DNA of 64,000 bases from Pseudomonas phage PaBG: the sequence record KF147891.1. One strand, given 5' to 3'. Every line of letters starts with the position of its first letter. Positions within the stretch are counted from its first letter, which is position 1. The position numbers and the translations under genes are program-made. Of this stretch, positions 6,231-36,346 are shown in pieces. The notes below the pieces were generated by a model that saw nothing but the letters and a program-made list of their open reading frames with translations, searched no databases and was not told the DNA's origin.

Positions 6231-6465
6231 TTTGATCACAGTTCGCGCAGTTCGCGCTGGATTTCACGATCAGCAATGCGGCGCTCCGCTCTATGGCAGA
6301 GGGTCTTGAGTTCGCGCCCGTAGCCGATGCTACTGAACGGGCGACGACTCCAGAACTCGCCGGGTTGTTTGCTGCCGTGTTTGGTTCTGCTCATGGTGGT
6401 TCTCCGAATATGACGGGAATGTCATATTCGGATAGTACGGTTGGTCATAGCGGACCTCCTTGGTG

Positions 6466-6951: not shown

Positions 6952-6956
6952 TCTGA

Positions 6957-7475
6957 TCACCCCAGGTAATGCGCTTTGCCGCAGTTGCACGGCTTTGGCG
7001 ACACGGCCTTCTTGACTTCGGTGAACAGCTTGTTGGTGGAAGACACGGAGAAATACGCATCGGTATTCACGCCGTTCTTCTCGCGGTAGCGGCGGTTCAC
7101 ATCCGCGCTGTTGAACATCGCGCCGTACGGCCACGATTGCTGATTCGCCTTTTCCCACATCGGGATGTCGAAGGCTTCCCGCTCGATTGCGCTCAGTTGG
7201 CTGGGTGCAACCTTCTGGTCGACCTTGGCACGGTTGGCTTTCAGCAAGCGGCCGTTGTCGGAGACCATCATCATTGCAGACATTTCGATCTTGCTATTGA
7301 TGATGGTGTACGAAACGCTGTCTCTCGACTCCTTGCGGATTGCAGGAACCTTGAACCAGGTGTCGCCGGTGAATTGGTGCTCAGGAATTTCCGGGCAGTA
7401 CCAGTTACGCATGAACACATACAGGACGGAGTTGAACTCCAAGCCCTGCGGATTGTCGTGTACATAGATCATCAC
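6957..7475 (-). CDS. hypothetical protein
   Basis: 172-aa ORF. Confidence 0.5.
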   Translation of the reverse strand: MMIYVHDNPQGLEFNSVLYVFMRNWYCPEIPEHQFTGDTWFKVPAIRKESRDSVSYTIINSKIEMSAMMMVSDNGRLLKANRAKVDQKVAPSQLSAIEREAFDIPMWEKANQQSWPYGAMFNSADVNRRYREKNGVNTDAYFSVSSTNKLFTEVKKAVSPKPCNCGKAHYLG

Positions 7476-7981
7476 GTTACCTCAAATGGGAGGAAGACAG
7501 GCCGACGGCCAGCTCCGATAAAGAGCGCGCACGGGTCCATTGAATAGGAGTAGTGCGCGTAGTTCGTGATGCGTCTAACTTCAAGCACTTCCAAGTGGTC
7601 GTACTCTTTGACGCCGTTGTTGAAACGCAGGCCGTTGTACACCTGGCACGGCTGCACTTCGATCAGATGGTGAGAGTTCAGGCGGACGTGGCGTATCGAG
7701 GTCATGAACGACACGATCTGCCCATTCGACTCCCGCATCCGAAGCGCGTAGGCTTCACTGCCGAACGCGCCTATCTGGATACGCACAGCAATCTCGCCGT
7801 CTGGCCCAAGCACGCGATGGACGTGGTTGTTGGGTTTCGACATAGCGAGTTCGCTGACACGAATCGGTGTGCCATTCGGGCGGAGCACGAAGCATCCGCC
7901 GCAAATGGTGTTCTGACTCAGAGGCATCGGGCGCAGCGATTGCAGGTTTACGCCTTTGTTGAAGCCATTGGTGAGCGGCAT
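7472..7981 (-). CDS. hypothetical protein
   Basis: Trimmed to MPLTNGF, immediately after the topo A-subunit stop. Confidence 0.45.
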   Translation of the reverse strand: MPLTNGFNKGVNLQSLRPMPLSQNTICGGCFVLRPNGTPIRVSELAMSKPNNHVHRVLGPDGEIAVRIQIGAFGSEAYALRMRESNGQIVSFMTSIRHVRLNSHHLIEVQPCQVYNGLRFNNGVKEYDHLEVLEVRRITNYAHYSYSMDPCALFIGAGRRPVFLPFEVT

Positions 7982-7985
7982 GATG

Positions 7986-9602
7986 TCAGGCAAACTCCAG
8001 GCCAGACTTGTTCTTGTCAGGGTTCTTGAGGTACGACTTGACGCGAGCTTCGGTGTCACGCGCTGCTCGGGCACCCGGGGCCTTGAGGTCTTTGGCGAGC
8101 TGCTTCAATTCGTCCTTGAGCTCCTTGATCTTCTCCTTGAGCGCGGCCGCTTCCAACTTGGCAAGCTGGCGAACTTTTCGGTCGAGGATGATGATCGCGT
8201 CTTCGACCGGAATCTTCAACGCCTTGGCGAGTGCTGCGTTCGGGTCGTTGCTCACCAAAACTTTCGGCAATGCCTTGAGCAGTTGCTCCATGTTCTCGAC
8301 GGCGAACAGGTAGACCTCGTTGATGTGCAGGTCACGCTCAGCGCGCTTGGTCAGATACTTGATCAGCCGCACTTCCAGCTTGGTGCGATAGTTGATCCAC
8401 TTGGTGAAGAAGTCCACGTAGTTCAGGTACTTGAACTCGTTCGCCTCTTCCGCCTTACGGATCGTGACACCCAGGCGGTAGTTCACGGAGCTGGTGGTTG
8501 CCTTCTCAACGGCTTCCACGATGTCAGCGAAGCGATCCTCGCCGACGTTGCGACCGCACTCGACGATGAACAGGGCGCCGTACGGACCAGAGCCCTTCGA
8601 CTTCTTGCCCTGCTTGGAAAAGGTCTTCTTCACGCCGTTGATGGCGCTCAACTTCTCCAGGGTCTTGTCGATGGTCTTGGTCGACGACAGGCCTGCGGGT
8701 ACGAACGAGCGAATCTGGATCGTGCGGGTTTTGAAGTCCGCATTCATCAGCGGTGCGTACACGATGTTGCCGCGGCCGGTCTTGAGCATTTCGGCGAACT
8801 GGCTGCCGGCAGTGATGTCCTCGCAACCGAACGGGTGCTGAATCTTCAACACCTTGGCGAGTTGCTTGGCGTTGAACTCCTTGCCGTTCAGCATATCGAT
8901 GACGACGCGCGCCACAGACTTGAACGAGAAGCTCGGGTTGCCAGCGCGCACGCCGTACGCAGGTGCAGGCACGTTGCCGTTAAACAGCACGTACGGGAGC
9001 AGCGCAGGCAGGAACAGCGGGATCACGTCGTCGCCGGAGAAGTTGGGGACTTTCGGCACGACTTCCAGGTACTTGGTGTCCAGCAGGAACATGTGCGAGA
9101 ACTTCGACATCCGCGCTTCGGTGTAACGCTGTGCGGCTGCCGGGTTGATCGGAGTACCCCAGTTACCCTGACCATCGACAGCAGGCGGCATGGTGTTCGC
9201 AATCGTCACCATCGCACCGTATGCTGCGGCGTCGCCGTGCGGGTGGTACTTACCGATGGTGTCACCGACAGTACGTGCCGACTTCTTGTAGCCGCTCGAC
9301 GGACGCAACGACAGACCAGCGAGCGACCAGAGCAGCGAACGGTGAACTGGCTTCAACCCGTCACGGATGTCAGGCACAGCACGGTCTTCAACCACGTAGC
9401 TGCCGTAGGTGAACATGGCTTCGGCAGTGTACTGATCGATGGTGGTGGTCTGCACGGTGTTTGCTTTCAACGGAAAGCGGTCTTCGGCATGCAGTACCTT
9501 GCCTTTGCCTTTCTTCACCTTCTTGTTGCTGACTTCAATCTGCACGTCAGCAGCAGCAGCGCCGCGGGTTTTTTCTTTCTTGGTTTTCTTGACCTTGGCC
9601 AT
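7986..9602 (-). CDS. type II DNA topoisomerase, GyrA/ParC-like subunit (T4 gp52-like)
   Basis: DGLKPVHRSLLWSL and YHPHGDAAAYGAMV match the GyrA breakage-reunion motifs (DGLKPVHRR / YHPHGD). The ORF at 7956..9746 on the + strand is an antisense artefact. Confidence 0.8.
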   Translation of the reverse strand: MAKVKKTKKEKTRGAAAADVQIEVSNKKVKKGKGKVLHAEDRFPLKANTVQTTTIDQYTAEAMFTYGSYVVEDRAVPDIRDGLKPVHRSLLWSLAGLSLRPSSGYKKSARTVGDTIGKYHPHGDAAAYGAMVTIANTMPPAVDGQGNWGTPINPAAAQRYTEARMSKFSHMFLLDTKYLEVVPKVPNFSGDDVIPLFLPALLPYVLFNGNVPAPAYGVRAGNPSFSFKSVARVVIDMLNGKEFNAKQLAKVLKIQHPFGCEDITAGSQFAEMLKTGRGNIVYAPLMNADFKTRTIQIRSFVPAGLSSTKTIDKTLEKLSAINGVKKTFSKQGKKSKGSGPYGALFIVECGRNVGEDRFADIVEAVEKATTSSVNYRLGVTIRKAEEANEFKYLNYVDFFTKWINYRTKLEVRLIKYLTKRAERDLHINEVYLFAVENMEQLLKALPKVLVSNDPNAALAKALKIPVEDAIIILDRKVRQLAKLEAAALKEKIKELKDELKQLAKDLKAPGARAARDTEARVKSYLKNPDKNKSGLEFA

Positions 9603-11618
9603 TTAGTCCTCCAGACCCAGCAGACGGCGACGGTATACAGCATCTTCTGCAACGACGCCACGGAACCAGAGTTCTTGCTCGTGGTTGGCGAACGGATTGA
9701 TGCGAATGAGATTGCGGTGTTCAGGCGAGAACGCGATCGGTTCTAGGAAAGTCTCATCGACCTCACCCCAGCCCTTGATGCGAACGATGTCCTTGTCCTT
9801 GACTGCCTTGGGTGCGGCTTTACGGCACTCATCGAAGGTCATGCCACCGTAGAGTTTGCCGTCATGGAGCACAGCATACAGCGGAGCCTTGACGCACCAG
9901 ACGCGGCCTTCTTTGAACAGGTCTGGCAGCAGTCGGTAGATCGCCGCTAGGAACAGTACGGCAATGTGCCCACCATCCGGGTCCGGATCGACCAGGAAGA
10001 TGATGTTGCCAGTACGCAGATTGTCGGTCGACAGACGCGGGTTCTCAGCTTTCGGATCGAGCGTCTTGATGTCGGCGCCCAGGCTGATGAGCATGTTCTG
10101 GATTTCTTCGTGACCCAGAATCTTCGCCAGGGTCGCTTTCAGTGCGTTCAGTGGCTTACCGCCAGCACCCAGCACTTCCTGATAGTTCGCGTCTCGGGCG
10201 TCGATTGCAGTACCTGCGGCCGAGTCACCCTCAACGATGAACAGCTCGCGCTCATGTGGCTTGGCCTTGTCGGCGACAGCAAGTGCGCTCGGCAGACTGG
10301 AGCCCTTGATCGACTTCTTCGCGTCAGCCATGGACTTGACGACAGCAGCGAGTTCTTCACGGCCCTTGTTCATCACCAGTGCGCGCTTGATGATGGTCTT
10401 CGCAACGCGCTGGTTGGCTTTGAAGTACTCCTCGAACACTGGCAGCATTGCCTCGTGAACTTCGCGGTCGACCTTCGAAGCCAGCTTGTCTTTCACCTGC
10501 GAGGTGTACTGGGCGCCGTGCATACGCCAGTCAAACATACCAACCAGACCGATCAGCAGGTCAGAACCAGAGAATCCATTGCCGCCTTTCTTCTTGCCCT
10601 TGGGCTGAGTCATGTACGGCTTGATCGCAGCCATCAGGGCGCTGGTAAATCCGGTGACGTGCCAGCCACCATCGACAGTCGGCGACGTGTTCACGAACGT
10701 CAGGAAGTGGTCGGCATCCGGATGGTCAGCCCACACGACAGAGCAACTGATGTTGTCGGTCTTGAACGTCATGGGCTTGCCGATCATGCCCAGTTCGCGT
10801 TCCTCACACATTGCCTTGGGTACCCAAGCCAAGTCCTTCTTGTTCAGGAAGGTAAACGCTTTGGTCTTGCCGCCCTTGATGACCTTGAAGCGAATCTCCA
10901 GACCTGGGTTCAGGTTCGCCATGTTCTTCAACCACATGGCAATCGGCTTGGCCTGGGGCGAGGCATGCACATAATCTTTCGGCAGGGCCTTACCACGACG
11001 GGCAGACTCAGACACGACGGTCTGGTCGAGCTTGCCCGCGATGATGGTGCCGTACTTGCTCTGCTTCATCGACAGGCGCGAGGCCACGTCCTTGTCGATG
11101 CTCTTGACCTTGATCGGGTCTTTACCCTTGGTTGTGATTTCGCCTTTCGAGAACGACTGGAAGGCGCACTTGCCGTTGTACATACTCCAGACACGCAACT
11201 CCTCGCACACGGCGTTCACCGCCGCAACACCAACGCCGTGAGTACCGGCCGAAGTCTTGTACGAATCGGAGTTGAACTTGCCACCTGCGTGGGCGCGAGA
11301 GAACGCGGCCGTCATGATGGTCTCTTTCGTCCCGTCTTTCAACTTCTTGTAGTCGGTCGGGATACCGCCAGCAGCGTCGGCGACGATGTGGAAGTCGGCG
11401 TCGTAGTCGAGGATGACCTCGATCAACTTGTTACGACCGGCGATGGCCTCGTCGTATGCGTTGTCTACCTCTTCCTTGATGACACGGTACGCCATGTCAT
11501 GACCGAGGTTACCCAAGTACATCGTGGGGTTTATACGGATGCCTTGGAGGCCCTCCGCGATGACGAAGCCCTCCTGAGAGGCAGACTTCTTCCCCTTCTT
11601 GATCTTTTCCTTAGCCAT
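9603..11618 (-). CDS. type II DNA topoisomerase, GyrB-like ATPase/Toprim subunit (T4 gp39-like)
   Basis: GHKL ATPase motif GTHGVGVAAVNAVC and Toprim motif LFIVEGDSAAGTA. Adjacent to and co-directional with the A subunit. Confidence 0.85.
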   Translation of the reverse strand: MAKEKIKKGKKSASQEGFVIAEGLQGIRINPTMYLGNLGHDMAYRVIKEEVDNAYDEAIAGRNKLIEVILDYDADFHIVADAAGGIPTDYKKLKDGTKETIMTAAFSRAHAGGKFNSDSYKTSAGTHGVGVAAVNAVCEELRVWSMYNGKCAFQSFSKGEITTKGKDPIKVKSIDKDVASRLSMKQSKYGTIIAGKLDQTVVSESARRGKALPKDYVHASPQAKPIAMWLKNMANLNPGLEIRFKVIKGGKTKAFTFLNKKDLAWVPKAMCEERELGMIGKPMTFKTDNISCSVVWADHPDADHFLTFVNTSPTVDGGWHVTGFTSALMAAIKPYMTQPKGKKKGGNGFSGSDLLIGLVGMFDWRMHGAQYTSQVKDKLASKVDREVHEAMLPVFEEYFKANQRVAKTIIKRALVMNKGREELAAVVKSMADAKKSIKGSSLPSALAVADKAKPHERELFIVEGDSAAGTAIDARDANYQEVLGAGGKPLNALKATLAKILGHEEIQNMLISLGADIKTLDPKAENPRLSTDNLRTGNIIFLVDPDPDGGHIAVLFLAAIYRLLPDLFKEGRVWCVKAPLYAVLHDGKLYGGMTFDECRKAAPKAVKDKDIVRIKGWGEVDETFLEPIAFSPEHRNLIRINPFANHEQELWFRGVVAEDAVYRRRLLGLED

Positions 11619-11676
11619 GTTCGATTGAACTCCGTTGGTTCGGTATGAGGACTAGAGCGAAAGTGTTGGACCTGAT

Positions 11677-11701
11677 TGCAGGCCGTACGTAAGCTGTTTA
11701 C
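11677..11701 (-). promoter_or_regulatory. 5'-UTR hairpin containing a GTGTAAAC promoter-like motif, upstream of the topoisomerase operon
   Basis: Inverted repeat acgtaag / cttacgt. The - strand reads aaGTGTAAACag, which matches the recurrent TGTAAA motif. Confidence 0.3.
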
Positions 11702-11708
11702 ACTTACG

Positions 11709-12041
11709 TCATTTTCGAGTTGTGGTTTGTTTGGCCTTGTCGAGTTTTGCTTTTTCCTTCTTCGCCCAGGTGTAACCAGAGTCGCCGCCCCAAAGCAGCC
11801 ATGCGATATAGCCGTTGCTGGGGTTGGCTCGATTGCCAAAATTTGCCGCACGTTTGTCCACTTCATGGCGGGCGAAGAAGGAGACCATGCGACGTATCAC
11901 AGCATCGCTGACGGTGCGACCCTGCGACAACTGGCGGGCGCGTGCCCAGCCAACCTTCGTACCTCCCCTCTTAAACTCTTTGTGCAAAGTCAAGCCAAGA
12001 GCGGCAGCACGTCGAACGGATGCAGGTGCAGTGCGAGACAT
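11709..12041 (-). CDS. hypothetical protein
   Basis: Trimmed to MSRTAPASVRRAAALGL... Confidence 0.45.
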   Translation of the reverse strand: MSRTAPASVRRAAALGLTLHKEFKRGGTKVGWARARQLSQGRTVSDAVIRRMVSFFARHEVDKRAANFGNRANPSNGYIAWLLWGGDSGYTWAKKEKAKLDKAKQTTTRK

Positions 12042-12060
12042 AGCGAGTAGTCCTTTGAGG

Positions 12061-12096
12061 TGAGAGAAAAACGACAAACCCAGCACTAGGCTGGGT
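12061..12096 (-). terminator. intrinsic terminator (leftward)
   Basis: On the - strand: ACCCAGC-cuagu-GCUGGGU followed by UUGUCGUUUUUCUCUC. The stop codon of gene 12086..12469 lies in the loop. Confidence 0.6.
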
Positions 12097-12469
12097 CGGT
12101 CTGTTGGCGTATGAATATTGGATCGATGTGGCCTTCGATGTACCAGCACACGTCATCTGGTCGGTGTGCGGGATCGTCGTTGTCGTAACTTCGCCACTCT
12201 GGGTCCGGCCGTAAGGTTGACTTGAACAGCGAAACGTCCACTTCAAGAACGACAGCATCAGGGCCTTTGAAGAAGGCGGCGTTCAACGTATCGTCGGTCA
12301 ACACGTCCGCATCGAGCGCGAGAAACACGCGCCCTGCAACTTCGCCGCCGTCTGTGGCGCGCGGCATGTTCGGCAGTAAGCCGTCACGCAGAATTGCGCT
12401 CACGTTGTCACGATGCGTAACGTGAACAAGCACGTCTGGGATATGGTCCATGAGAGTCTTCGCCGTCAC
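12086..12469 (-). CDS. hypothetical protein
   Basis: 127-aa ORF. Confidence 0.5.
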   Translation of the reverse strand: MTAKTLMDHIPDVLVHVTHRDNVSAILRDGLLPNMPRATDGGEVAGRVFLALDADVLTDDTLNAAFFKGPDAVVLEVDVSLFKSTLRPDPEWRSYDNDDPAHRPDDVCWYIEGHIDPIFIRQQTDPA

Positions 12470-16233: not shown

Positions 16234-16259
16234 GGGGAGTCTTCGGACTCCCTTTTTAT
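16234..16259 (+). terminator. intrinsic terminator
   Basis: GGGGAGTC-uucg-GACUCCC followed by UUUUUAU. Exact copy of the terminator at 31716-31742. Confidence 0.8.
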
Positions 16260-16295: not shown

Positions 16296-16333
16296 CTAAA
16301 AAAGGGAGAGCACATGCTCTCCCTTTTTGTTTG
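16296..16333. terminator. bidirectional intrinsic terminator between convergent genes
   Basis: A-run, GGGAGAGC-acau-GCUCUCCC, T-run. Terminates rightward and leftward transcripts. ORF 16314..17012 on the + strand, which starts inside it, is spurious. Confidence 0.7.
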
Positions 16334-22777: not shown

Positions 22778-23451
22778 CTGAGCATCAGGTATTGCCTGAG
22801 GAAATCGCCAATAACCAACGGCTGCTGCGCATCCACATTTCGCTGACGTCCGAAGAACTGCGTGAGTATTTTGCCATGCGCTCTGCGTGCCGAGAGCTTC
22901 CAGCAGGATCGGAAGCCCAACGTGCTCTCGTTGGCAATTTCACCCAACGCTTCTCTGATTTCGTGGCTGACTGGAAGACGTTTGGTGTTACGCAGTACCC
23001 GACGCCGCTGCTTCCGTCGCTGCCGTACAACTACTTCGCCACGATCGACCGTGAGCACGCATCTGGTGCCGTGCTCTTTCTGCTAGCGAACCCGTCGCCG
23101 CAGAGTCGCGCAATCTACGCCCATTGGGCGACGTGGAGAGCAATGCTGGCTGCGGTTGGTTTAGGTTCGTTGCATGACGATCTGTGCCAGTGGAGTTCGT
23201 ACTTGCAAGTCATGCGCAAGGTCTGCTCGCAGAAGACGTTCCCGCGTCAAACCCTCTGGGCTGAACTGATTCCGCAACTGGTGATGCGCCGCGACTTGGT
23301 AGACGGCCGCGTAACTGGCGTCGTTGCTTATGTTGCCCGCTGCATCCGAGACTGCCTTGGGTTGGATCGTAATTCCGATCGTCTGATAATCAGCGACACC
23401 GGTCTGGTAGTTGACGGACCTGCCCTTACCATTGAACGGAGACTCCCATGA
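22774..23451 (+). CDS. hypothetical protein
   Basis: Trimmed to MTEHQVLPEE (ATGA overlap with the previous stop). Confidence 0.45.
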   Translation: MTEHQVLPEEIANNQRLLRIHISLTSEELREYFAMRSACRELPAGSEAQRALVGNFTQRFSDFVADWKTFGVTQYPTPLLPSLPYNYFATIDREHASGAVLFLLANPSPQSRAIYAHWATWRAMLAAVGLGSLHDDLCQWSSYLQVMRKVCSQKTFPRQTLWAELIPQLVMRRDLVDGRVTGVVAYVARCIRDCLGLDRNSDRLIISDTGLVVDGPALTIERRLP

Positions 23452-24098
23452 TGGAAAACTTCCTCACGCACGACGACATCGTAACCTTCTTCTCGGACAT
23501 GGATGTCAGCGTGCAAATCCTGCAGCAACACCAGGGTTCGCAGTACACCGACATCAACGGCCAGCAGGCTGTCGCTGCGTTCGCAGAGTTCAGCGGTCAC
23601 ATTCCTTTCCCGAACACTGACGGTGATCTGCGCGAAGCGGCCGCAGCGCTCAAGCGCAAACTGCGCGAAGCTCGTGGCGACGCCAACACCGTACTGGTTC
23701 GTTCCATGGTCGCCACCTCGGCACCCACAGGCGTGTCCTTGTTCGCACACTGCGCCTTCGTCAAGGCCTTCGTCGAAGTCGATCCGCGCACTGAGCGCGT
23801 TCGTCGTTTGGTTGAGCGCGGCGAGTGCTGCAACGTCGGCGATGTGGCTCACGCTCTGATCCTCGGCTATCGCTGCGCCCGACCTACGTGGGAGAACGAT
23901 GCGTTCATCTACCTGCAGAACGCGAGCGAGTTCAAGGTCAATCGCGCACCTCTGCTCGGTATTTTCCCCGAGGGCACCAACATCAAGTTCGAGGCGCACA
24001 TCGATCAGTACCAAGACGACGGCAGTGTTCGCGTCTGGTCGCCGAGTGTTGCCGACATCCTGGCCACCGACTGGATCATCCTGGCTCACGAAGTGTGA
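23448..24098 (+). CDS. hypothetical protein
   Basis: 216 aa. ATGA overlap. Confidence 0.5.
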   Translation: MMENFLTHDDIVTFFSDMDVSVQILQQHQGSQYTDINGQQAVAAFAEFSGHIPFPNTDGDLREAAAALKRKLREARGDANTVLVRSMVATSAPTGVSLFAHCAFVKAFVEVDPRTERVRRLVERGECCNVGDVAHALILGYRCARPTWENDAFIYLQNASEFKVNRAPLLGIFPEGTNIKFEAHIDQYQDDGSVRVWSPSVADILATDWIILAHEV

Positions 24099-24227: not shown

Positions 24228-24303
<76 letters not shown>

Positions 24304-26294: not shown

Positions 26295-26388
26295 GACCCA
26301 GTAGCTCAGTTGGTAGAGCGCGTGAACGCCTGCGCCGATAGCGGGAGTAACGTCATAGAGGTCGAGAGTTCAAATCTCTCCTGGGTCT
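26295..26388 (+). tRNA. aberrant tRNA-like element (possible tRNA pseudogene or non-canonical tRNA)
   Basis: Perfect 7-bp acceptor stem (GACCCAG/CTGGGTC), canonical D arm (TAGCTCAGTTGGTAGAGC) and T arm (GAGAG-TTCAAAT-CTCTC). There are 43 nt between the D and T arms. The only 5-bp stem with a 7-nt loop (CCTGC-GCCGATA-GCGGG) is displaced 8 nt and lacks U33. Confidence 0.35.
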
Positions 26389-26405: not shown

Positions 26406-26615
26406 ATGTACACGATGTTGCCGTCAATGCACTTTCCACTAAAGCGTCCTGTGCTTACTCCAGAAGAAGCCAGTGCGTCGCGTGCCAGAACCCTTGAGGC
26501 TATTCGCAAATGCCGCGAAGCCCAAGCTGAACTGGAGCGAGTTTGCCGTGAGAAAGGCATTGAGATTCCGGTGATGGTCTGTCGTTCTAGTTTCCGAGTT
26601 CGTTCGGGTCGTTAG
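26406..26615 (+). CDS. hypothetical small protein
   Basis: 69 aa. The 3' end runs into the tRNA-Lys gene. Confidence 0.3.
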   Translation: MYTMLPSMHFPLKRPVLTPEEASASRARTLEAIRKCREAQAELERVCREKGIEIPVMVCRSSFRVRSGR

Positions 26616-26681
26616 CTCAGTTGGTAGAGCATGGCGCTTTTAACGCCGTGGTCGTTGGTTCGAGTCCAACACGACCCACCA
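26606..26681 (+). tRNA. tRNA-Lys (anticodon TTT)
   Basis: GGGTCGTTAGCTCAGTTGGTAGAGCATGGCGCTTTTAACGCCGTGGTCGTTGGTTCGAGTCCAACACGACCCACCA. Acceptor stem and D arm identical to E. coli tRNA-Lys. Confidence 0.8.
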
Positions 26682-26689
26682 GTTTCATA

Positions 26690-26765
26690 GGCCCCATAGT
26701 CGAGCGGTTAAGACGCTTGCCTGTCACGCAAGAAATCGCGGGTTCGATTCCCGCTGGGGTCGCCA
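26690..26765 (+). tRNA. tRNA-Asp (anticodon GTC)
   Basis: Anticodon arm CTTGC-CTGTCAC-GCAAG. T arm GCGGG-TTCGATT-CCCGC. Encoded CCA. Confidence 0.75.
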
Positions 26766-26766
26766 T

Positions 26767-26843
26767 AGGACGTTAGCTCAGTTGGTTAGAGCATCTGACT
26801 TTTAATCAGAGGGTCCTGGGTTCGAGTCCCAGACGTCCTACCA
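26767..26843 (+). tRNA. second tRNA with anticodon TTT (tRNA-Lys-like)
   Basis: AGGACGTTAGCTCAGTTGGTTAGAGCATCTGACTTTTAATCAGAGGGTCCTGGGTTCGAGTCCCAGACGTCCTACCA. Anticodon arm TCTGA-CTTTTAA-TCAGA. Separated from tRNA-Asp by 1 nt. Confidence 0.65.
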
Positions 26844-28419: not shown

Positions 28420-28621
28420 GTTCGTCAACAGCGGCAACGTCTTCCATCGGCCGTGTGCTGATTATCAAGGTAAAGGCGCAACGCTGACGATTACTGCCCG
28501 CGGGACCATACGCGCAAGTGTCCACACGCCAACACCCACAGGCATCGAGACTTTCTGGGGATGGACCTACATGGACGATCAACCCGGACTCAAGCGCCTG
28601 ATCAAGCGCATCGCACTCTAG
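28340..28621 (+). CDS. hypothetical protein (start uncertain; overlaps the previous ORF)
   Basis: 93-aa ORF overlapping the 3' end of 27949..28419. Confidence 0.2.
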   Translation: MVSHESQKEHFQTLRQLAATMGKNIGEFVNSGNVFHRPCADYQGKGATLTITARGTIRASVHTPTPTGIETFWGWTYMDDQPGLKRLIKRIAL

Positions 28622-28688
28622 GGAGCCAATGGCTCCCTTTTCCTTTGGCCGTGGTAATTTCTCCGAATCGAACATGAGGAGATTTGCC

Positions 28689-29192
28689 ATGCTTGGATTA
28701 TTCGGCAACGTGACTGTGAAGAAAGGCAAGCGGAAACGCAAATTCAAGAAGTACCGCCAGTACGAATACGATTTCTACGGGCGCAAGCTGGTGCTGCAAG
28801 GCTACGAAGCACAAGCGCTTGAGTACCTTGTCGAAGTCGGCGGGTTCGATCCTGCGGACATCAAGACCGAGTGCGAGTTCGGCGACGCCCTGAACATCCG
28901 TTACAAGTATTCGGGCAAATGGCGTTCCTACATGCCTGACATTTTCATCCGCAACCACAACATCATCGTCGAAGTGAAGTCGAAATCCACGATGGGCTTG
29001 TTGAACAACAAGAAGCGTGGTTGGTCGATGAACCAAGCCAAGGCGAAGGCGTGCCATGCCCGCGGTTTCAAGTTCTGCGTGCTTCTGATGACCGACTCAG
29101 GCAAGCGCATTCCGCTGCCGAAGAACTGGCCGCTGATGAAGAAGGCGGAGTGCCTGCGCATCATGCGTGAGGAGCTTGGAGTTCGCATCTAA
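28689..29192 (+). CDS. PD-(D/E)XK family nuclease, homing-endonuclease-like (paralog of 41438..42262)
   Basis: YMPDIFIRNHNIIVEVKSK gives PD...EVK. The C-terminal 110 aa align with the C-terminus of the 41438..42262 product. Confidence 0.5.
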   Translation: MLGLFGNVTVKKGKRKRKFKKYRQYEYDFYGRKLVLQGYEAQALEYLVEVGGFDPADIKTECEFGDALNIRYKYSGKWRSYMPDIFIRNHNIIVEVKSKSTMGLLNNKKRGWSMNQAKAKACHARGFKFCVLLMTDSGKRIPLPKNWPLMKKAECLRIMREELGVRI

Positions 29193-29895: not shown

Positions 29896-30693
29896 ATGGC
29901 AGCCGTACGTAAACTATCCGACCTGAAAGAAGCTGGCTACAACCCGCGCGTCATCAGCAGCAAGCGCCTCAGCAACCTGCACAAGTCCATGACGACCTAC
30001 GGCGACCTGAGCGGCGTCGTGTTCAACGTCAAGACCAAGACCCTGATTTCCGGCCACCAGCGCCTCAAGCCGCTGCGTGATGCTGGCATCAAAGTCGAAA
30101 TCAAGACCAAGCCCATCACCGACAAGTTCGGCACTGTAGCCGAAGGCTACGTCGTCGCCAAGACCAGCGCCGGCGAGCTGCGCATCCCGTACCGCGAAGT
30201 ATCCTGGAGCGACAAGAAAGCCGAGTACGCTGCCAACATCGCTGCAAACGCTCACGGCGGTGACTTCGACCGCACCAAGCTCGGTACCCTGCTGGCTGCT
30301 CTGGAGAAGGGCAAGTCGTTCGACATCGACGTTCTGGGTCTCGATCCGTTGAGCGTGCGCAGCCTGATGCCGAAGATGCCGAACGTCGAAGGTAGCGGTG
30401 ACGATGACGGTGAATCGTTCCAAGAGTACGGCGAGGACAGCTTCGAGTTCGATCATCAGTGCCCGAAGTGCAAGTTCCAGTTCAACTCCAGCTCTGCAAG
30501 CAAGCCCAAGAAGGACAAGCCGCAACCCAAGGCGCCGAAGCTCGACGTGAAGAAGGCCAAAGCCGAAGTCAAAGCCAAGAAGATCAAGGCTGAGAAGAAG
30601 ACCGACAGCAAGGCCAAGTCCAGCGCCGCAAAAGAATCGCTGAAAAAAGCGAAGTCCAGTAAGCTCAAGGCCAAGATCAAGAAGGCCAAGTAA
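29896..30693 (+). CDS. ParB N-terminal (ParB/Srx-like nuclease) domain protein with a Lys-rich C-terminal tail
   Basis: Start MAAVRKLSDLKEAGYNPRVI after SD agga. The LISGHQRLKPL motif resembles the ParB/sulfiredoxin DGHHR box. C-terminus has CPKCKF and about 70 residues of K/A repeats. Confidence 0.5.
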   Translation: MAAVRKLSDLKEAGYNPRVISSKRLSNLHKSMTTYGDLSGVVFNVKTKTLISGHQRLKPLRDAGIKVEIKTKPITDKFGTVAEGYVVAKTSAGELRIPYREVSWSDKKAEYAANIAANAHGGDFDRTKLGTLLAALEKGKSFDIDVLGLDPLSVRSLMPKMPNVEGSGDDDGESFQEYGEDSFEFDHQCPKCKFQFNSSSASKPKKDKPQPKAPKLDVKKAKAEVKAKKIKAEKKTDSKAKSSAAKESLKKAKSSKLKAKIKKAK

Positions 30694-30704: not shown

Positions 30705-31712
30705 ATGGAAAAGAAAATCGTCAAGATACCTTCGATGAAGAAGATCAACGCTCTTCCGAAGGCATTCAAAGGCATCAGTTCGTTCTCCGGTTGTGGCGGG
30801 AGCTCCACTGGTGTGAAGATGGCTGGCGTCCAAGTGCTGCTCGCAACCGAGTTCATCAAGCCAGCCATCGAAACCTACGAGAAGAACCACAAAGGCACCA
30901 TCGTCATCGGTGAAGACATTCGCAAGGTCGACTGGGAGTCGTGGCGCAAGGAGCTCAAGCTCAAGCGCGGCCAGCTGGACTTCTCCGAAGGCAGTCCGCC
31001 GTGCAAGTCCTTCTCGACCTCTGGCACTGGCAGTGACGACTGGGGCAAGGAGAAACTCTACTCTGAGAACGTCTACCAGCGCACCGATGACCTCTTCTAC
31101 GAGGAAATGCGCAAGCTGGAAGCGTTCATGCCCAAGGTCTTCGTCTGCGAGAACGTCAAGGGCATGGTTGAGGGTGACGCCAAGGGTTACTTCATCGAAA
31201 TCCTGCGTGACCTTAAAGCAATCGGGTATAGCGTGAAGGCGCAGGTGTTGAACGCTGCCCGTCTCGACGTACCCCAAGCCCGCGAGCGCGTGATCTTCGT
31301 TGGTGTGCGTAACGACTTGGTGAAGAAAGGCTTTGAGCCTGTGTTCCCCAAAGCGAAGCCGTACGAGGTGAACGTCAACGACGTCCTACCTCACATTGCG
31401 TACCTCAAGTCGAAGTACCGAGGCGACATCAAGTACGTCCCAGCTTCGATCCCGAGTCCTACGATCGTGGCGAGCGATGGTACCAACAGTGAGACTGCCG
31501 GCTTCTCGTCTGGCGGCTTCATTGAGACTGTCGATGGCGAGCGCCGCAAGTACACCATCGACGAGTTGAAGAAGATTTTCACCTTCCCGGATGACTTCAT
31601 CTTCACTGGTACCTACAAGCAGCAGTTCGAGCGTCTCGGCCGCTCAGTTCCGCCACTCATGATGTATCGCGTAGTCGCGGAGCTTCGCCGCCAGATTCTG
31701 GAGAAGCTGTAA
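30705..31712 (+). CDS. DNA (cytosine-5)-methyltransferase family enzyme with an atypical PCK catalytic motif
   Basis: Motif I FSGCGG, motif II ATEF, motif IV SPPCKSFS (canonical is PCQ), motif VI ENV (FVCENVKG), motif VIII QARER, motif X RLGRSVPP. Confidence 0.8.
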   Translation: MEKKIVKIPSMKKINALPKAFKGISSFSGCGGSSTGVKMAGVQVLLATEFIKPAIETYEKNHKGTIVIGEDIRKVDWESWRKELKLKRGQLDFSEGSPPCKSFSTSGTGSDDWGKEKLYSENVYQRTDDLFYEEMRKLEAFMPKVFVCENVKGMVEGDAKGYFIEILRDLKAIGYSVKAQVLNAARLDVPQARERVIFVGVRNDLVKKGFEPVFPKAKPYEVNVNDVLPHIAYLKSKYRGDIKYVPASIPSPTIVASDGTNSETAGFSSGGFIETVDGERRKYTIDELKKIFTFPDDFIFTGTYKQQFERLGRSVPPLMMYRVVAELRRQILEKL

Positions 31713-31715
31713 CCC

Positions 31716-31742
31716 AAGGGAGTCTTCGGACTCCCTTTTTAT
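31716..31742 (+). terminator. intrinsic terminator followed by AAACTGTAAAT (31751-31761) and TATAAT (31768-31773)
   Basis: GGGAGUC-uucg-GACUCCC followed by UUUUUAU. Exact copy of the 16234 terminator. Confidence 0.8.
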
Positions 31743-31793
31743 GGCCTCCGAAACTGTAAATCCACAGTATAATCCATTGGTTGGAGCCTAAAC

Positions 31794-32570
31794 ATGAGCC
31801 AAGAACCTGTAGTAGACAACCACGTCCCAGGCGAACGCTGGGAGTTCAACGAGGACGTAGCCAAGCAGTTCGACCTGATGCTGGAGAAGTCGATCCCCGG
31901 CTACGGACAGATGCGTGATCTGGTGTATCGCATCGGCAAGCGTTTCGTTCAGTCGCCGTCGAACGTCATCGATCTGGGTGCTAGCCGTGGTGAAGCCGTG
32001 GCGCGCTTTATCGCTGAGTTCCCGCACTCTGACTTCTTCCTCTCGGAAGTTTCCGAGCCAATGCTGGCTGAAATGCACGAGCGCTTTGCTGATCTGCCGA
32101 ACGTGTTTCCTGTGAGCTACGATCTGCGCAAGACGTCCGAGCAGATTGCCACAGCGATTCGTAATCCGAAGTTCGGCATGGCCCACGCTGGGCTGAACCC
32201 TGTTGCGTCGCACACTACGCTGGTGCTGTCTATTCTCACCATGATCTTCGTGCCCATCAACTTCCGCCCGAGCATCTACAAGGGCGTGTACGACGGACTG
32301 GCCCGCGGCGGCGCGTTCATCGTTGTCGAGAAGGTGCTTGGCAACTCCGCCGCCATGCAAGAGCTGCTGGTTGACGTGTACCACGAGTACAAGCACGACA
32401 ACGGCTACAGCTGGGAAGCCATCGAGCGCAAACGCGCCGCCCTCGAAGGCGTGCAAGTACCTGTGAGCCATGAGACCAACATCGATATGTTGCGTGCCGC
32501 TGGCTTCCGCAACGTCGAATCGTTCTGGCGCAACATGAATTTCGTGGCCTATCTGGCTATCAAGGATTAA
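31794..32570 (+). CDS. cmoA: carboxy-S-adenosyl-L-methionine (Cx-SAM) synthase CmoA homolog
   Basis: About 45% identity to E. coli CmoA in two blocks: WEFNEDVAKQFDLMLEKSIPGYGQ..FVQSPSNVIDLGASRGEA vs [42 protein letters not shown], and GGAFIVVEK...YKHDNGYSWEAIERKRAALE...AAGF vs GGALVLSEK...[20 protein letters not shown]...KAGF. Confidence 0.8.
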   Translation: MSQEPVVDNHVPGERWEFNEDVAKQFDLMLEKSIPGYGQMRDLVYRIGKRFVQSPSNVIDLGASRGEAVARFIAEFPHSDFFLSEVSEPMLAEMHERFADLPNVFPVSYDLRKTSEQIATAIRNPKFGMAHAGLNPVASHTTLVLSILTMIFVPINFRPSIYKGVYDGLARGGAFIVVEKVLGNSAAMQELLVDVYHEYKHDNGYSWEAIERKRAALEGVQVPVSHETNIDMLRAAGFRNVESFWRNMNFVAYLAIKD

Positions 32571-32572
32571 CG

Positions 32573-33025
32573 ATGCGTGAACTCAAGCTACTCCGCAAGC
32601 GCGTAAAGCAGGCTTGGGCGGCAGAAGCTGACCTGAGTCCGAATGAGCGAGAACTGCACCAGTGGCAGTTCCTGTCGATGCAGAGCAACGTGCCCTATGT
32701 CGTCGGTAAGGGTGCCGCCAACACGTTCTTCTATCGTGTCGGTACTACTGGTGAAATGACCTACGTGATGCCAGACGAAATGTTTGCCATCATGGACAAG
32801 TGGGTCAACTCTAGCTTTGCTTTGTTCGCCATCACCAAGACGCGCGACATCAAAGACGCCCCGTGCTCCACGGACATCAACGTCCTGCTGCAAAAGACGA
32901 AGGACAAGTACGTCGGTTATTTCATTGTCGGTATCACACCCGACCAGCGTGTAGTTCGCCTGCATGTATTGAAAAGCGGACTCCGCAAAAACCAATGGGT
33001 GCCCTTCAAGCCGAAGAAACGGTAA
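32573..33025 (+). CDS. hypothetical protein (within the modification cassette)
   Basis: 150-aa ORF directly after the cmoA-like gene. Confidence 0.45.
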   Translation: MRELKLLRKRVKQAWAAEADLSPNERELHQWQFLSMQSNVPYVVGKGAANTFFYRVGTTGEMTYVMPDEMFAIMDKWVNSSFALFAITKTRDIKDAPCSTDINVLLQKTKDKYVGYFIVGITPDQRVVRLHVLKSGLRKNQWVPFKPKKR

Positions 33026-33034
33026 GGAAAGACA

Positions 33035-33859
33035 ATGGACCAGAAGACTCGTTCCAAGAAATTGCGCCGAGCGCTCGTTGCGCAGGCGAAGTCGGTGGGC
33101 GTCAAGAATGTAGCCGTTCCCATGAGCAGCGGTGTGGACAGTCACTGTGCGCTGTTCGCCTGCCTCGAAGCTGGGTTGAGCCCGCACGTCTACTCGTTCC
33201 ATCTGGACGGCGTTGAAAGCCGTGACGTGCGTGTCGCCGAGAAGACAGCGGAAGCCTTCGATCTGCCGTTCACCAAAGTGACGCTACCCAATGGCAAGAA
33301 GCAACTCATCAAGGACGTCATCGAGCTTGCCCGTTTCGGCTGCCGTAGCAAGACGGACTTCGAGTGCTTCTGGCCAATGTGGCACTTGCTGCCGAAGATC
33401 AAGCAGAAGGCTTTCTTCACCGGCCATGGTGCCGACAGCCTGTACTGCCTTAGCCGCAAAGCTGTTCAACACTACGCCGGCCGCGAAGATGAATTTCGTA
33501 GGCTGGCTTTCTCGTCCAACAAAGCCTTCCAGAAGGGCTTGATCGAGAAGTGGTGTGAGACTAAGGGCAAAGGCAAAATCTACTGCCCGATCTTCTTCAA
33601 CCAGCAGACGCTTGCAATCTTCCAAGGCGCCAAGCCTGCTGATCTGAACAAGCCGATCCAGAAAGCCGTGAGCCGCATGGCGTTCGAGGAATACTTCGAG
33701 CATGTGCGCGTCTACGTTCACCAACCTTTCCAGTTGGGTGACACCGGCATCAAGATCGGCTTCGAGCAGCATCTGCTGGACAGCGAACTCAACACCAAGT
33801 CCTACAAAAGCGTTGTCGGCATTTATAATGAGCTGGTGCGCAACTACGGGAAGAAGTGA
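33035..33859 (+). CDS. PP-loop (adenine-nucleotide alpha-hydrolase) superfamily ATP pyrophosphatase
   Basis: N-terminal VAVPMSSGVDSHCALFA matches the PP-loop motif SGGxDS, as in asparagine synthetase, QueC, NAD synthetase and TilS. Confidence 0.55.
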   Translation: MDQKTRSKKLRRALVAQAKSVGVKNVAVPMSSGVDSHCALFACLEAGLSPHVYSFHLDGVESRDVRVAEKTAEAFDLPFTKVTLPNGKKQLIKDVIELARFGCRSKTDFECFWPMWHLLPKIKQKAFFTGHGADSLYCLSRKAVQHYAGREDEFRRLAFSSNKAFQKGLIEKWCETKGKGKIYCPIFFNQQTLAIFQGAKPADLNKPIQKAVSRMAFEEYFEHVRVYVHQPFQLGDTGIKIGFEQHLLDSELNTKSYKSVVGIYNELVRNYGKK

Positions 33860-34473
33860 CCATGTTCATCCAAAACTATATCCACTACAAGACCGATCCC
33901 GCCTCGTGGGTGCTGAACACGCTGTTCCCGCTGACTGCGGAAGAGTACGGCGACCAGCAAGCTTGGCTCGATGCTGGAGCTCCAGACGAACCTCCGATGA
34001 CTCGCGTCCTGAATGCTGAGCAAGATCGACTGTTCAAGCTGGTACACAAGCACGCCAGTGACTACTACGCGCAGAACAAGCCGTACCTGAACTCCGTCGC
34101 AATCATGATGGCAATGACCGCGCTCTACGGTGAGCAGCAAGTTCTCGGCCATTCGTATCGCGGTGCATTCCTGTTTGCCGGCAACTGCGAAGCGATGTTC
34201 AGTCGTCTGGTGATGCAAGGTCAAGGTGCAATGGATTTCATGCGCTACAACCTTGCACAAGAAGTAACTGGTGACCCGATGCTCGCGGTAATTCGCGCCG
34301 AGCAACTGTGCCACAAGTACGGCCTGCGTAATCACCGCATGCCAACCGGTGACGGTACCGACATCGTGTTCAGCCTTGAGCCGATCGCCAACCCGGTGTT
34401 CGATAACGTCAAATACATTCCATCCGTCGCTGGCTACTATACCATCGTCGGCAAAGGTGCAGCGAGGGATTAA
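33856..34473 (+). CDS. hypothetical protein
   Basis: GTGA-coupled to the PP-loop gene. Likely ATG 6 nt downstream (MFIQNY). Confidence 0.45.
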   Translation: MTMFIQNYIHYKTDPASWVLNTLFPLTAEEYGDQQAWLDAGAPDEPPMTRVLNAEQDRLFKLVHKHASDYYAQNKPYLNSVAIMMAMTALYGEQQVLGHSYRGAFLFAGNCEAMFSRLVMQGQGAMDFMRYNLAQEVTGDPMLAVIRAEQLCHKYGLRNHRMPTGDGTDIVFSLEPIANPVFDNVKYIPSVAGYYTIVGKGAARD

Positions 34474-34475
34474 CC

Positions 34476-35537
34476 GTGGCCAAGAAAGACAAACTCAAGA
34501 AGAAAAAAGGTGATGTCAAGATCGATGTCACCGTCGAGAAGAAAAAGAAAAAGAAGGCGAAAGCCGAGGTAATGCCGATCGCGAAGGACAGCTACATCAT
34601 CGTTCGTGTCGGTAGCAAGCACAAGCTGGCACTCGCCATCAACCCGGAACGCGGTCGCGCTGTCATCGACGAAACTCTGGCGGACGACGAGCCACAGCAC
34701 ATCGAGTTCGACGAGAACAACCTGGTGTGCAACCTGGGCACCAAGCCCAAGGGTGGCGCTGCCTTCGGCGTGCGTATCGAACCCTACGTCTCCAGCGTCG
34801 AATCCAAGTACGGCCAGATGCACTTCTTCCGCGAGCTGGGTGACCTGGAGAAGAAAGCACTCAAGCGCGCACTGCGTCGCACCTACGACGGCATGCTGGA
34901 ACAGAACCTGAACGTCTTCCCGTTCACCCAGATGAAGATTACGCCGAAGCGCGGCAAGTACGCGGGTATGTATCTGTTCCGTCGCAAGTCTGGCGAGGTC
35001 TGGGATGCCGTTGTACTGCACCCGGAGACGTTCGAGGACACCAAGTTCAACGAGTACCTGCTGTACCACGAATACGGTCACGCTGTCTGGTACAAGATGA
35101 TCACTGCCAGCTACAAGGCCAAGTGGATCAAGCTCTACCACAAGCGCCTGGAGCTGATGAACATCCTGAAAGATCGTCTTGAGCCGATGCTGGACGAACT
35201 GCTCAAGTTCGCCGGCAGTCTCAAGGACTTCTACAAGGAACTCGAAGAGGAAGACCGCCTCGTGTTCCGTGAGGTGCTGTCGCACTACAAGCGCTACCAC
35301 AAGATGGATGGCTACTCGATGGACATCCTGCACATGGAAGACACTGAGAAGTTTGCTTCGATGTGGCCGAAGCGTGCAACTCTCGTTGAATCGCGCCCTG
35401 ACCTGAGCGAATATGCGATGGTCAAGCCTGAGGAGTTCTGGGCAGAAGCGTTTGCGTTCCACATGACTGGGCGCAAAATGCCCAAGGACATTACCAAAGC
35501 CATGGAGAAAACGCTGACTGCTTTGCAGAGCGTGTAG
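34476..35537 (+). CDS. HExxH zinc-metallopeptidase-like protein with a poly-Lys N-terminus
   Basis: MAKKDKLKKKKGDVKIDVTVEKKKKKKAKAEV followed by LLYHEYGHAVWYK (HExxH). Confidence 0.45.
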   Translation: MAKKDKLKKKKGDVKIDVTVEKKKKKKAKAEVMPIAKDSYIIVRVGSKHKLALAINPERGRAVIDETLADDEPQHIEFDENNLVCNLGTKPKGGAAFGVRIEPYVSSVESKYGQMHFFRELGDLEKKALKRALRRTYDGMLEQNLNVFPFTQMKITPKRGKYAGMYLFRRKSGEVWDAVVLHPETFEDTKFNEYLLYHEYGHAVWYKMITASYKAKWIKLYHKRLELMNILKDRLEPMLDELLKFAGSLKDFYKELEEEDRLVFREVLSHYKRYHKMDGYSMDILHMEDTEKFASMWPKRATLVESRPDLSEYAMVKPEEFWAEAFAFHMTGRKMPKDITKAMEKTLTALQSV

Positions 35538-35547
35538 AGACTCCCAC

Positions 35548-36111
35548 ATGAACGACCTTGCGACGTTAAAGTCCCTAACCTCGATCAAGCCCATTGCTAC
35601 ATTGGGCAACACACCAGGCACCACCATGTTCAATCGTTTCTTCTTTGAGCGACTGAGCGCATTCGGCTCTGTGAAAAATGGCATCGTCCTGACGATTAAC
35701 GACGAAGCCTTTGAAGATGTAGAAGACTGGGGTGAGTTCATCCAGACCCCGATGGGTAACGTGACGGTTCGCCGTGCTGTTACCGAAGATGACCTGCAGA
35801 GTCTGAGTTTGCCGGGTATGGCCCATCTTCGTCATGCAGGCGTGCGCAATTTTGCTCGCCTGTTATCTGACGATGCCGTGATCTTTCGGTTTGAGACTGC
35901 GCGTTGGCAAGGCGTTGAGTATCCGATCGAGGAATTGAATCGGTACTTTGAAACCCTGCGTCGCGCTTATCACCTGAGTGACGAGGCTGGCATCATCGAC
36001 GTGCCGATTCAGCTCGGTAGTGTAAACCACCGATATACGACCAGAGCGCAGATTGAATCTGTCCTCTACCCAATGGCGTACTACTTTTTTCGAGAAGATA
36101 CGGAGCTCTAA
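35548..36111 (+). CDS. hypothetical protein
   Basis: 187-aa ORF. Confidence 0.45.
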   Translation: MNDLATLKSLTSIKPIATLGNTPGTTMFNRFFFERLSAFGSVKNGIVLTINDEAFEDVEDWGEFIQTPMGNVTVRRAVTEDDLQSLSLPGMAHLRHAGVRNFARLLSDDAVIFRFETARWQGVEYPIEELNRYFETLRRAYHLSDEAGIIDVPIQLGSVNHRYTTRAQIESVLYPMAYYFFREDTEL

Positions 36112-36112
36112 C

Positions 36113-36346
36113 ATGAACTTTGGTGAAGCGCTACACGTACTGGAACAAGGCGGCAAAGTCCAGCGCACCGGCTGGAATGGCAACGGCATGTGGCTCGAAC
36201 TCCAAGTGCCTGACGAACACAGCAAGATGACGCTACCGTACATCTTCCTGTCGTATCCTGCAGATGCCAAGAACACGCCCGGTGCGCGCGTACCCTGGGC
36301 TCCGTCGCAGACCGACGTTCTGGCGAAAGACTGGCAAGTGGTTTAA
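36113..36346 (+). CDS. DUF2829 / Tad2-like protein (putative anti-Thoeris sponge)
   Basis: MNFGEALHVLEQGGKVQRTGWNGNGMWLELQ...MTLPYIFL...VPWAPSQTDVLAKDWQVV matches, from memory, the GEA..L..G.kv.R.GWNG.GM and SQTD.LA.DW signature of DUF2829/Tad2. Start after SD ggag. Confidence 0.5.
   Translation: MNFGEALHVLEQGGKVQRTGWNGNGMWLELQVPDEHSKMTLPYIFLSYPADAKNTPGARVPWAPSQTDVLAKDWQVV

Follow-up and report, generated by a model that had tools for sequence, protein, structure and literature searches.

What does a bacteriophage do with CmoA, an enzyme whose bacterial counterparts make a cofactor for transfer RNA (tRNA) modification? The question is raised by a 64,000-nucleotide stretch of Pseudomonas phage PaBG (sequence record KF147891.1; we call this whole stretch the window), a jumbo myovirus of P. 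aeruginosa from Lake Baikal (PMC3886941, PMC7412058). At positions 31794..32570 on the + strand, the window encodes a homologue of CmoA, a putative carboxy-S-adenosylmethionine (Cx-SAM) synthase of 258 amino acids. A first-pass annotation made from the letters alone recognized this homologue, considered it out of place in a phage, noted that no cmoB partner is present in the window, and proposed that Cx-SAM is used instead by the neighbouring methyltransferase-like enzyme. Judging from sequence, we find that the locus is very probably a new example of the CmoA-CmoX-CmoY system already published for phage S-B43, and we consider it highly likely that PaBG CmoA is the first enzyme of such a DNA hypermodification module.

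In S-B43, CmoA makes Cx-SAM with a kcat of 2.33 per second, CmoX uses it to carboxymethylate the cytosine of GC motifs at C5, yielding 5-carboxymethylcytosine (5cxmC), and CmoY ligates glycine to 5cxmC with ATP; the glycyl amide is present in virion DNA (Yang et al, Nat Commun, December 2025, PMC12783734). The survey in that study gathered 5,615 candidate CmoX proteins with the SPPC motif and the Arg discussed below and, with them, 4,257 CmoA, 2,251 ligase, and 1,660 ParBc proteins; its searched text and supplements make no mention of PaBG, Pseudomonas, or Erwinia.

Is the PaBG protein a CmoA at all? The gene is an uninterrupted ATG-to-stop frame, exactly as first annotated, with GGAG about 8 nucleotides 5' of the ATG, and an identical gene was called on two independent metagenome contigs. 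In hidden Markov model (HMM) searches, the protein matches TIGR00740 with an E-value of 7.6e-38 (130.5 bits; residues 15-257 against profile positions 14-239 of 239) and NF011995 with an E-value of 3.9e-27 (95.3 bits). Apart from these two CmoA equivalogs, no NCBIfam family matches at E<0.01; the choice between CmoA and other class I methyltransferases, which the first-pass annotation had left to such a search, thus falls on CmoA. The closest PDB sequences are also CmoA proteins, 1IM8 (H. influenzae YecO/CmoA, 4.5e-26) and 4GEK (E. coli CmoA, 2.2e-25), and the next family, BelI/CysG, follows at only 2.9e-11, a gap of 15 orders in E-value. The match to phrog_4752 has an E-value of 2.7e-74. These results show that the product of 31794-32570 is a diverged CmoA. 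The divergence is larger than first estimated: an identity of about 45% to E. coli CmoA over both conserved blocks was an overstatement, as we find 29% by BLASTP and 31% by global alignment, with 41% in the N-terminal block (residues 16-66) and 37-42% in parts of the C-terminal block. Identity to the S-B43 enzyme, SpCmoA, is likewise 29%. P. aeruginosa has its own cmoA-cmoB operon, and its CmoA is 52.6% identical to the E. coli protein (PMC12288880); given that the phage protein is only about 30% identical to the same reference, recent capture of the gene from the host appears unlikely.

We then asked how the protein compares with CmoA in its active site and fold. In SAM motif I (D-L-G-x-S-x-G), residues D60, G62, S64, and G66 are invariant among 48 homologues, and the acidic residue past strand 2, E85, is Glu in 39 of the 48 and Asp in the other 9. 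In E. coli CmoA, R199 is the sole side chain that touches the carboxylate of Cx-SAM (PMC4482062), and R214 of the PaBG protein aligns with it. The prephenate pocket of CmoA is described as a hydrophobic cavity (reviewed in PMC10491745). An AlphaFold2 (AF2) model built on 48 homologues (predicted local distance difference test score 91.9) has a class I Rossmann fold that lies closest to 4GEK and 4IWN (template modelling score, TM, of 0.88). When this model is compared with the PDB by Foldseek, the six best matches are the CmoA structures 4GEK, 4IWN, and 1IM8 (TM 0.86-0.88), with BelI/CysG C-methyltransferases close behind (E 2e-19 vs 4.5e-21 for CmoA; TM 0.88). The insertion suspected between the two conserved blocks is real: the loop that leads from the DLR motif to the following strand has 30 residues, compared to 9 in most homologues. 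The closest relatives of PaBG CmoA share this insertion at lengths varying from 17 to 39 residues, and AF2 models it as two short helices (residues 115-128) followed by a less confident loop.

If PaBG CmoA makes Cx-SAM, which enzyme uses it? The gene is part of a co-directional, tightly packed array on the + strand that encodes, in order, a ParB-like protein, CmoX, CmoA, a protein we call ORF150, and CmoY. The methyltransferase-like neighbour named in the first-pass annotation is the C5-methyltransferase homologue immediately upstream, a predicted DNA cytosine C5-carboxymethyltransferase of 335 amino acids (30705..31712, +); the two genes share a strand, with the end of cmoX at 31712 and the start of cmoA at 31794. 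This CmoX homologue matches PF00145 with an E-value of 1e-51. Its best PDB sequence is 8YF3, the S-B43 enzyme SpCmoX (5.4e-56; 40% identity), followed by M.HaeIII at 3.4e-22. The catalytic motif SPPC is found at S97-P98-P99-C100 (S95-C98 in SpCmoX), and F27, E49, F50, and D71 correspond to SpCmoX F25, E47, F48, and D69, which contact the adenine and ribose of Cx-SAM. The cytosine-binding Glu and Arg are retained as well (ENV at 149-151 and R193/R195).

The residue that distinguishes a carboxymethyltransferase from an ordinary methyltransferase is also present. In SpCmoX, R350 stands in for the motif-X Asn of ordinary C5-methyltransferases (N304 in HhaI) and binds the carboxymethyl group; the wild-type enzyme took Cx-SAM only, and an R350N mutant took neither cofactor (PMC12783734). 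R313 of PaBG CmoX ('ERLGRSVPP') aligns with R350 ('ERVGRMVPP'), where M.HaeIII reads 'GNAVP'. Since this Arg underlies the Cx-SAM dependence of SpCmoX, PaBG CmoX, which has it too, should need a source of the cofactor. As far as can be read from its residues, the protein has every feature by which a Cx-SAM-dependent DNA cytosine C5-carboxymethyltransferase is defined in PMC12783734. These comparisons, together with the arrangement shown experimentally in S-B43, support the proposal that Cx-SAM is used by the neighbouring enzyme. The region between motifs VIII and IX is shorter and poorly conserved relative to SpCmoX. C5-methyltransferases usually carry their target-recognition domain here, and given this difference, the GC specificity of SpCmoX cannot be transferred to the PaBG protein.

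The third gene encodes a predicted ATP-dependent amide ligase of 274 amino acids, the CmoY homologue (33035..33859, +). It matches PF00733 with an E-value of 4.9e-6 over profile positions 15-162 and has a PP-loop, SSGVDS, at S31-S-G-V-D-S36. Its length and the range of this match indicate that it consists of the asparagine-synthetase ATP-binding domain only, without a glutaminase domain. It is 33% identical to SpCmoY over 259 positions (274 vs 271 amino acids), and the residues S31, G33, D35, S36, K106, E110, C111, D152, R155, and K210, invariant in the family, are common to the two proteins. The PaBG genome paper lists this ligase as 'asparagine synthase' under metabolism (PMC7412058). In Erwinia and Dickeya jumbo phages (for example, MZ443776 at about 13-17 kb), PaBG CmoY matches ligase genes at about 13.1, 14.1, 15.7, and 16.2 kb, all within a few kb downstream of cmoA and 24-43% identical to the PaBG protein. 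These matches suggest that a single genome may encode several paralogues of CmoY, which would allow for more than one amine or for ligations in sequence.

Does this association hold in other viruses? Scanning IMG/VR, we found 484 stretches encoding relatives of PaBG CmoA, and 80 loci were kept for neighbourhood counts. With hundreds of viral contigs carrying CmoA homologues, such an enzyme can no longer be considered out of place in a phage. A C5-methyltransferase homologue lies in the fetched flank of 63 of the 80 loci, and in 53 of those 63, SPPC, ENV, RxR, and the Arg are all present. CmoY homologues occur in 30 of the 80 loci and ParB-like homologues in 21. Using E. coli CmoB as the query, we detected no CmoB in these 80 loci, none at 1e-5 in 88 related loci, and none in the window by tblastn (best E 0.022), in agreement with the first-pass annotation. 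PaBG-like relatives, whose CmoA is 53-70% identical, retain the order ParB-like, CmoX, (ligase or other enzymes), CmoA, ORF150. In a collection of isolate phages, homologues of CmoA, CmoY, and ORF150 are each found in 48 Erwinia, 2 Dickeya, and 1 Yersinia records, and the 48 Erwinia and 2 Dickeya records also contain homologues of CmoX.

ORF150 (PaBG gp307, phrog_23597; 32573..33025, +) is a conserved protein that accompanies cmoA and cmoY in jumbo phages. It occurs in 51 of 50,697 phage records. Where positions were compared, ORF150 sits 1-5 kb from CmoA and CmoY, even in the Erwinia phages, whose CmoX is at a distance of about 18 kb. The PaBG and Erwinia phage proteins are 34% identical, and ORF150 is also seen in the related locus L004 (7750-8205). 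Fold and function searches with ORF150 gave no assignment.

Close relatives of the PaBG locus have other enzymes inserted between the ligase and cmoA: a 2-oxoglutarate-Fe(II) oxygenase (L007, 7231-7884), a DUF1611 protein (L008, 6160-7188), and an arginase-family protein (L009, 7029-7955), the last with a SET-domain protein nearby (1984-2346). These genes suggest that the carboxymethyl handle may be tailored, or the amine supplied, in varied ways. A different arrangement is seen among the 17 IMG/VR loci without a C5-methyltransferase. In 11 of them, CmoA lies less than 3 kb from a protein of about 510 amino acids that combines ParB_N with a class I Rossmann methyltransferase-like domain (L029, L037 at 6446-7999, L041, L042, L043 at 10611-12143, L044, L050, L051, L057, L061, and L073); in L037, CmoA overlaps the fusion gene. 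The fusion protein has a DFGAG motif and weak matches to Methyltransf_23 and UbiG and is not CmoB-like, PF00145, or PF01555. One possibility is that it represents another type of transferase that uses Cx-SAM, one tethered to DNA; Yang et al found no candidates for N6-adenine or N4-cytosine modification (PMC12783734).

How might the three enzymes act together? From gene content, order, homology, and conserved diagnostic residues, we propose the following pathway for PaBG. CmoA would convert SAM and host prephenate to Cx-SAM, as suggested by its homology to E. coli CmoA and to the validated S-B43 enzyme. Cys100 of CmoX would then attack C6 of cytosine in phage DNA, and the carboxymethyl group of Cx-SAM would be transferred to C5, giving 5cxmC, with Arg313 holding the carboxylate of the cofactor; this step is modelled on the crystallized SpCmoX, all of whose named contacts are conserved in its PaBG homologue. 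Finally, the PP-loop ligase CmoY would adenylate the carboxylate of 5cxmC with ATP and couple it to an amine, which is glycine in S-B43. PaBG DNA modified in this way would be expected to resist restriction and defence nucleases of the host. Accessory roles in the module are probable for ORF150 and the ParB-like protein. We also consider, as a possible though doubtful extension, that PaBG-type jumbo phages have a variant pathway, in which a diverged CmoY adds an amine other than glycine to give an undescribed cytosine hypermodification and ORF150 is a new required component, such as a DNA-binding or substrate-presenting partner of the ligase. Given that relatives insert other enzymes between cmoY and cmoA, the clade may be diversifying its end product.

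Several observations weigh against this pathway. PaBG CmoA falls below the curated cut-offs for CmoA (130.5 vs 193.3 bits for TIGR00740; 95.3 vs 285 bits for NF011995). SpCmoA, which has been validated biochemically, scores 115.6 bits on TIGR00740 and 102 on NF011995; because this active enzyme scores lower on TIGR00740 than the PaBG protein, the sub-cut-off score is no argument against activity, and the cut-off is best taken as a mark of bacterial orthology, not of activity. The position of R214 is Arg in 36, Lys in 6, Ala in 5, and Ser in 1 of the 48 phage-type homologues, and the active SpCmoA aligns with Glu at this position (R199 in E. coli). With 12 of the 48 homologues lacking Arg and a Glu in an active enzyme, R214 is a weak diagnostic. 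The 21 extra residues of the loop adjoin the strand that lines the substrate pocket. The residues of SpCmoY that bind the glycine carboxylate define which amine is added. In a small sample of 77 sequences, handled in the manner of a sequence similarity network to ask whether PaBG CmoY groups with the glycine ligases, it links to SpCmoY through intermediates at an E-value of 1e-45 and not at 1e-56, the threshold used to cluster CmoY in PMC12783734. A terminator-like hairpin lies between cmoX and cmoA, so the genes may not form one transcript. Finally, DNA modification is not mentioned in either PaBG paper (PMC3886941, PMC7412058).

Could the enzyme serve tRNA after all? Public databases name PaBG CmoA 'tRNA methyltransferase' (in a 100% identical PaBG entry), and one can imagine that it boosts Cx-SAM during infection for the host CmoB, which would make uridine 5-oxyacetic acid at position 34 (cmo5U34) in tRNAs, including the tRNA-Thr(UGU) and tRNA-Ala(UGC) of the phage itself, with DNA modification absent or secondary. 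The genes for these two tRNAs are in the window, 5-7 kb upstream of cmoA (24228-24303 and 26295-26388), and in P. aeruginosa, which has CmoB, tRNA-Ala(UGC) and tRNA-Thr(UGU) carry cmo5U or mcmo5U (PMC12288880). The host's own CmoA, however, already makes Cx-SAM (PMC12288880), and we saw no phage CmoB, TrhP, or TrhO, with CmoB turning up neither in the window nor in any of the 88 loci. Moreover, cmoA is embedded between a C5-methyltransferase of the Cx-SAM type and a ligase predicted to use its product, and this linkage to DNA enzymes recurs in most of the viral contigs, many of them small and without an evident link to tRNA. As an account of why the gene is there, a tRNA role is very unlikely. 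The two roles are not mutually exclusive, and because the window encodes tRNA-Thr(UGU) and tRNA-Ala(UGC), a side role in tRNA modification is possible in addition to the proposed role in DNA.

The remaining explanations dispense with a use for Cx-SAM. The protein might be an ordinary class I methyltransferase with a CmoA-like fold that methylates a small molecule, a protein, or a nucleic acid with SAM and makes no Cx-SAM; its scores below the curated cut-offs, the structural proximity of BelI/CysG, and the lineage-specific 30-residue loop would fit. Yet by sequence only CmoA models match it, with BelI/CysG trailing far behind in the PDB; the validated SpCmoA has a lower TIGR00740 score than the PaBG protein; and the neighbouring CmoX carries the Arg for Cx-SAM dependence and so needs a source of the cofactor; we find this explanation hardly credible. 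Alternatively, making Cx-SAM might serve to deplete SAM, weakening SAM-dependent defences in the manner of phage SAM lyases, with Cx-SAM as a by-product. Yang et al raised this as an open possibility (PMC12783734), and other genes of an anti-defence type, encoding Tad2-like domains, are found in the region. The conserved linkage to CmoX, a Cx-SAM-specific transferase, and to CmoY, a carboxylate-using ligase, argues instead that the product is used. Depletion as the purpose of the enzyme is highly improbable, and it would be at best an additional or side effect. DNA hypermodification by CmoA, CmoX, and CmoY is our preferred explanation.

What else lies around the module? The ParB-like DNA-binding protein upstream of cmoX (29896..30693, +; 265 amino acids from the ATG used in the gene call for locus L001) matches phrog_620, 'ParB-like partition protein', with an E-value of 2.9e-38, and its N-terminus matches the PADLOC MTase_II model at 2.4e-9; no Pfam family matches at E<0.01. 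Just 5' of this gene in PaBG-like relatives is a gene for a DUF7487/TnsA-like endonuclease-fold protein (28629-29192 in the window, E 4.9e-14; 13 of 88 loci). Downstream of cmoY, ORF205 (33856..34473, +; probable start at ATG 33862, giving 203 amino acids) has no match in Pfam, PHROGs, PADLOC, or the PDB. Homologues are found in 10 of 88 loci and are syntenic only in close relatives. Its membership in the system is unproven, and we did not count it as a member: it has no homology to the gene at the same position in an Erwinia phage and no informative homologues. The next gene (34476..35537, +) encodes a zincin-like protein of 353 amino acids with an HExxH motif (HEYGH) that matches phrog_17197, 'peptidase', at 1.2e-147 and, weakly, an ATLF-like PDB structure (9g0j, E 0.0015); homologues occur in 13 of 88 loci. 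Its membership is likewise unproven, and it too was not counted, being without informative homologues. Strongly Lys-rich tails resembling histone H1 are found at the C-terminus of the ParB-like protein (30480-30693), where the tail is rich in both Lys and Ala, and at the N-terminus of the zincin-like protein (34476-34570), suggesting that both proteins may bind DNA. It is suggestive that a predicted DNA-bound metalloprotease should lie beside an enzyme forming covalent adducts on DNA.

The wider region is one of replication and repair, with genes for a primase, a 5'-3' exonuclease, a clamp-loader-like ATPase, and an SbcCD-like pair around the cmo block. Two proteins with Tad2-like domains (Thoeris anti-defence 2, PF11195) flank the locus, one on either side, at 23448-24098 and about 36053-36346 (9936-10169 in L001), and in L009, a Tad2-like protein of 400 amino acids directly follows cmoA. 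PADLOC indicated no defence system at the locus; only the C5-methyltransferase and the N-terminus of the ParB-like protein match generic methyltransferase models. The phage tRNA genes in the window number five, at 24228-24303, 26295-26388, and 26606-26843, and are called as Thr(UGU), Ala(UGC), Lys(UUU) twice, and Asp(GUC). The tRNA-Ala(UGC) call is unusually long, at 94 nucleotides with the anticodon at position 37.

The hairpin between cmoX and cmoA (31718..31738, +) has a UUCG tetraloop and is followed by a T-run, as in a terminator. The region is predicted to fold with an energy of -26.4 kcal/mol (z -2.5), and a perfect TATAAT lies past it at 31769-31774. A scan for consensus terminators did not list this copy, and a sigma-70 promoter scan returned nothing on the + strand of the locus. 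The GGGAG...CTCCC hairpin with a T-run occurs five times in the window, where none is expected by chance: the copy at 16235-16255 is identical to the one at 31718, both with UUCG, and related copies are found at 16301/16304 (to 16326) and 28621-28640. These recurring hairpins are likely to be terminators or regulatory hairpins of the phage.

What, then, does PaBG add? A system of this kind has been in print since December 2025, so as a concept it no longer surprises; novelty now lies in the host range, in whatever amine and target motif PaBG uses, and in the extra gene that is conserved. With this locus, the Cx-SAM-based DNA carboxymethylation pathway described in a marine cyanophage gains a predicted member in a jumbo phage of P. 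aeruginosa PAO1 that can be cultivated, and related jumbo phages of Erwinia, Dickeya, and Yersinia would be added as well. Given its place in such a pathway, the annotations 'tRNA methyltransferase' and, under metabolism, 'asparagine synthase' are probably misleading. PaBG DNA is predicted to carry 5cxmC or an amide of 5cxmC, which bears on evasion of restriction and defence, on the sequencing and cloning of these phages, and on the sourcing of DNA-modifying enzymes.

The closest known system is that of S-B43. In both loci, a single co-directional cluster combines the three enzyme families, and cmoB is absent. CmoX is 40% identical and keeps all of the named Cx-SAM and catalytic residues, CmoY is 33% identical, similar in length, and likewise without a glutaminase domain, and the ParB-domain protein near PaBG cmoX recalls the many CmoX contigs of the S-B43 study that have one. 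In contrast, the order is cmoX-cmoA-ORF150-cmoY in PaBG and cmoA-cmoY-cmoX in S-B43; the two CmoA proteins are only 29% identical, and that of PaBG has the 30-residue loop; ORF150 is absent from S-B43; and the region between motifs VIII and IX of PaBG CmoX is shorter and poorly conserved. S-B43 is a marine Synechococcus cyanophage, whereas PaBG is a 258-kb jumbo myovirus of a pseudomonad whose DNA product is predicted.

Other systems match in part. PaBG CmoA shares with the E. coli and H. influenzae enzymes (4GEK, 4IWN, 1IM8) the fold (TM 0.88), the D-L-G-x-S-x-G motif, R214 (R199), and a full-length match, and differs in its 29-31% identity to the E. coli protein, its scores under the equivalog cut-offs, and its lack of a cmoB partner, with which cmoA forms a two-gene operon in gamma-proteobacteria. 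In bacteria, the carboxymethyl group is passed by CmoB to 5-hydroxyuridine at position 34 of tRNA (ho5U34); in PaBG, the presumed acceptor is C5 of DNA cytosine, through CmoX. The engineered methyltransferase M.MpeI N374K (reference 21 of PMC12783734) resembles PaBG CmoX in that a basic residue in place of the motif-X Asn, equivalent to Arg313, leads to use of Cx-SAM and to 5cxmC; it is a CpG-specific laboratory mutant that relies on the CmoA of its E. coli host, whereas PaBG CmoX is natural and adjoins a dedicated phage CmoA. Finally, in TglE (with TglF) and Bacillus microcin C MccS, a CmoA homologue has likewise been recruited from tRNA modification to feed another transferase (PMC10491745). 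There, a peptide thiol or a peptidyl-nucleotide is the acceptor and a CmoB-like protein is the partner; in PaBG, the partner is a homologue of C5-cytosine DNA methyltransferases.

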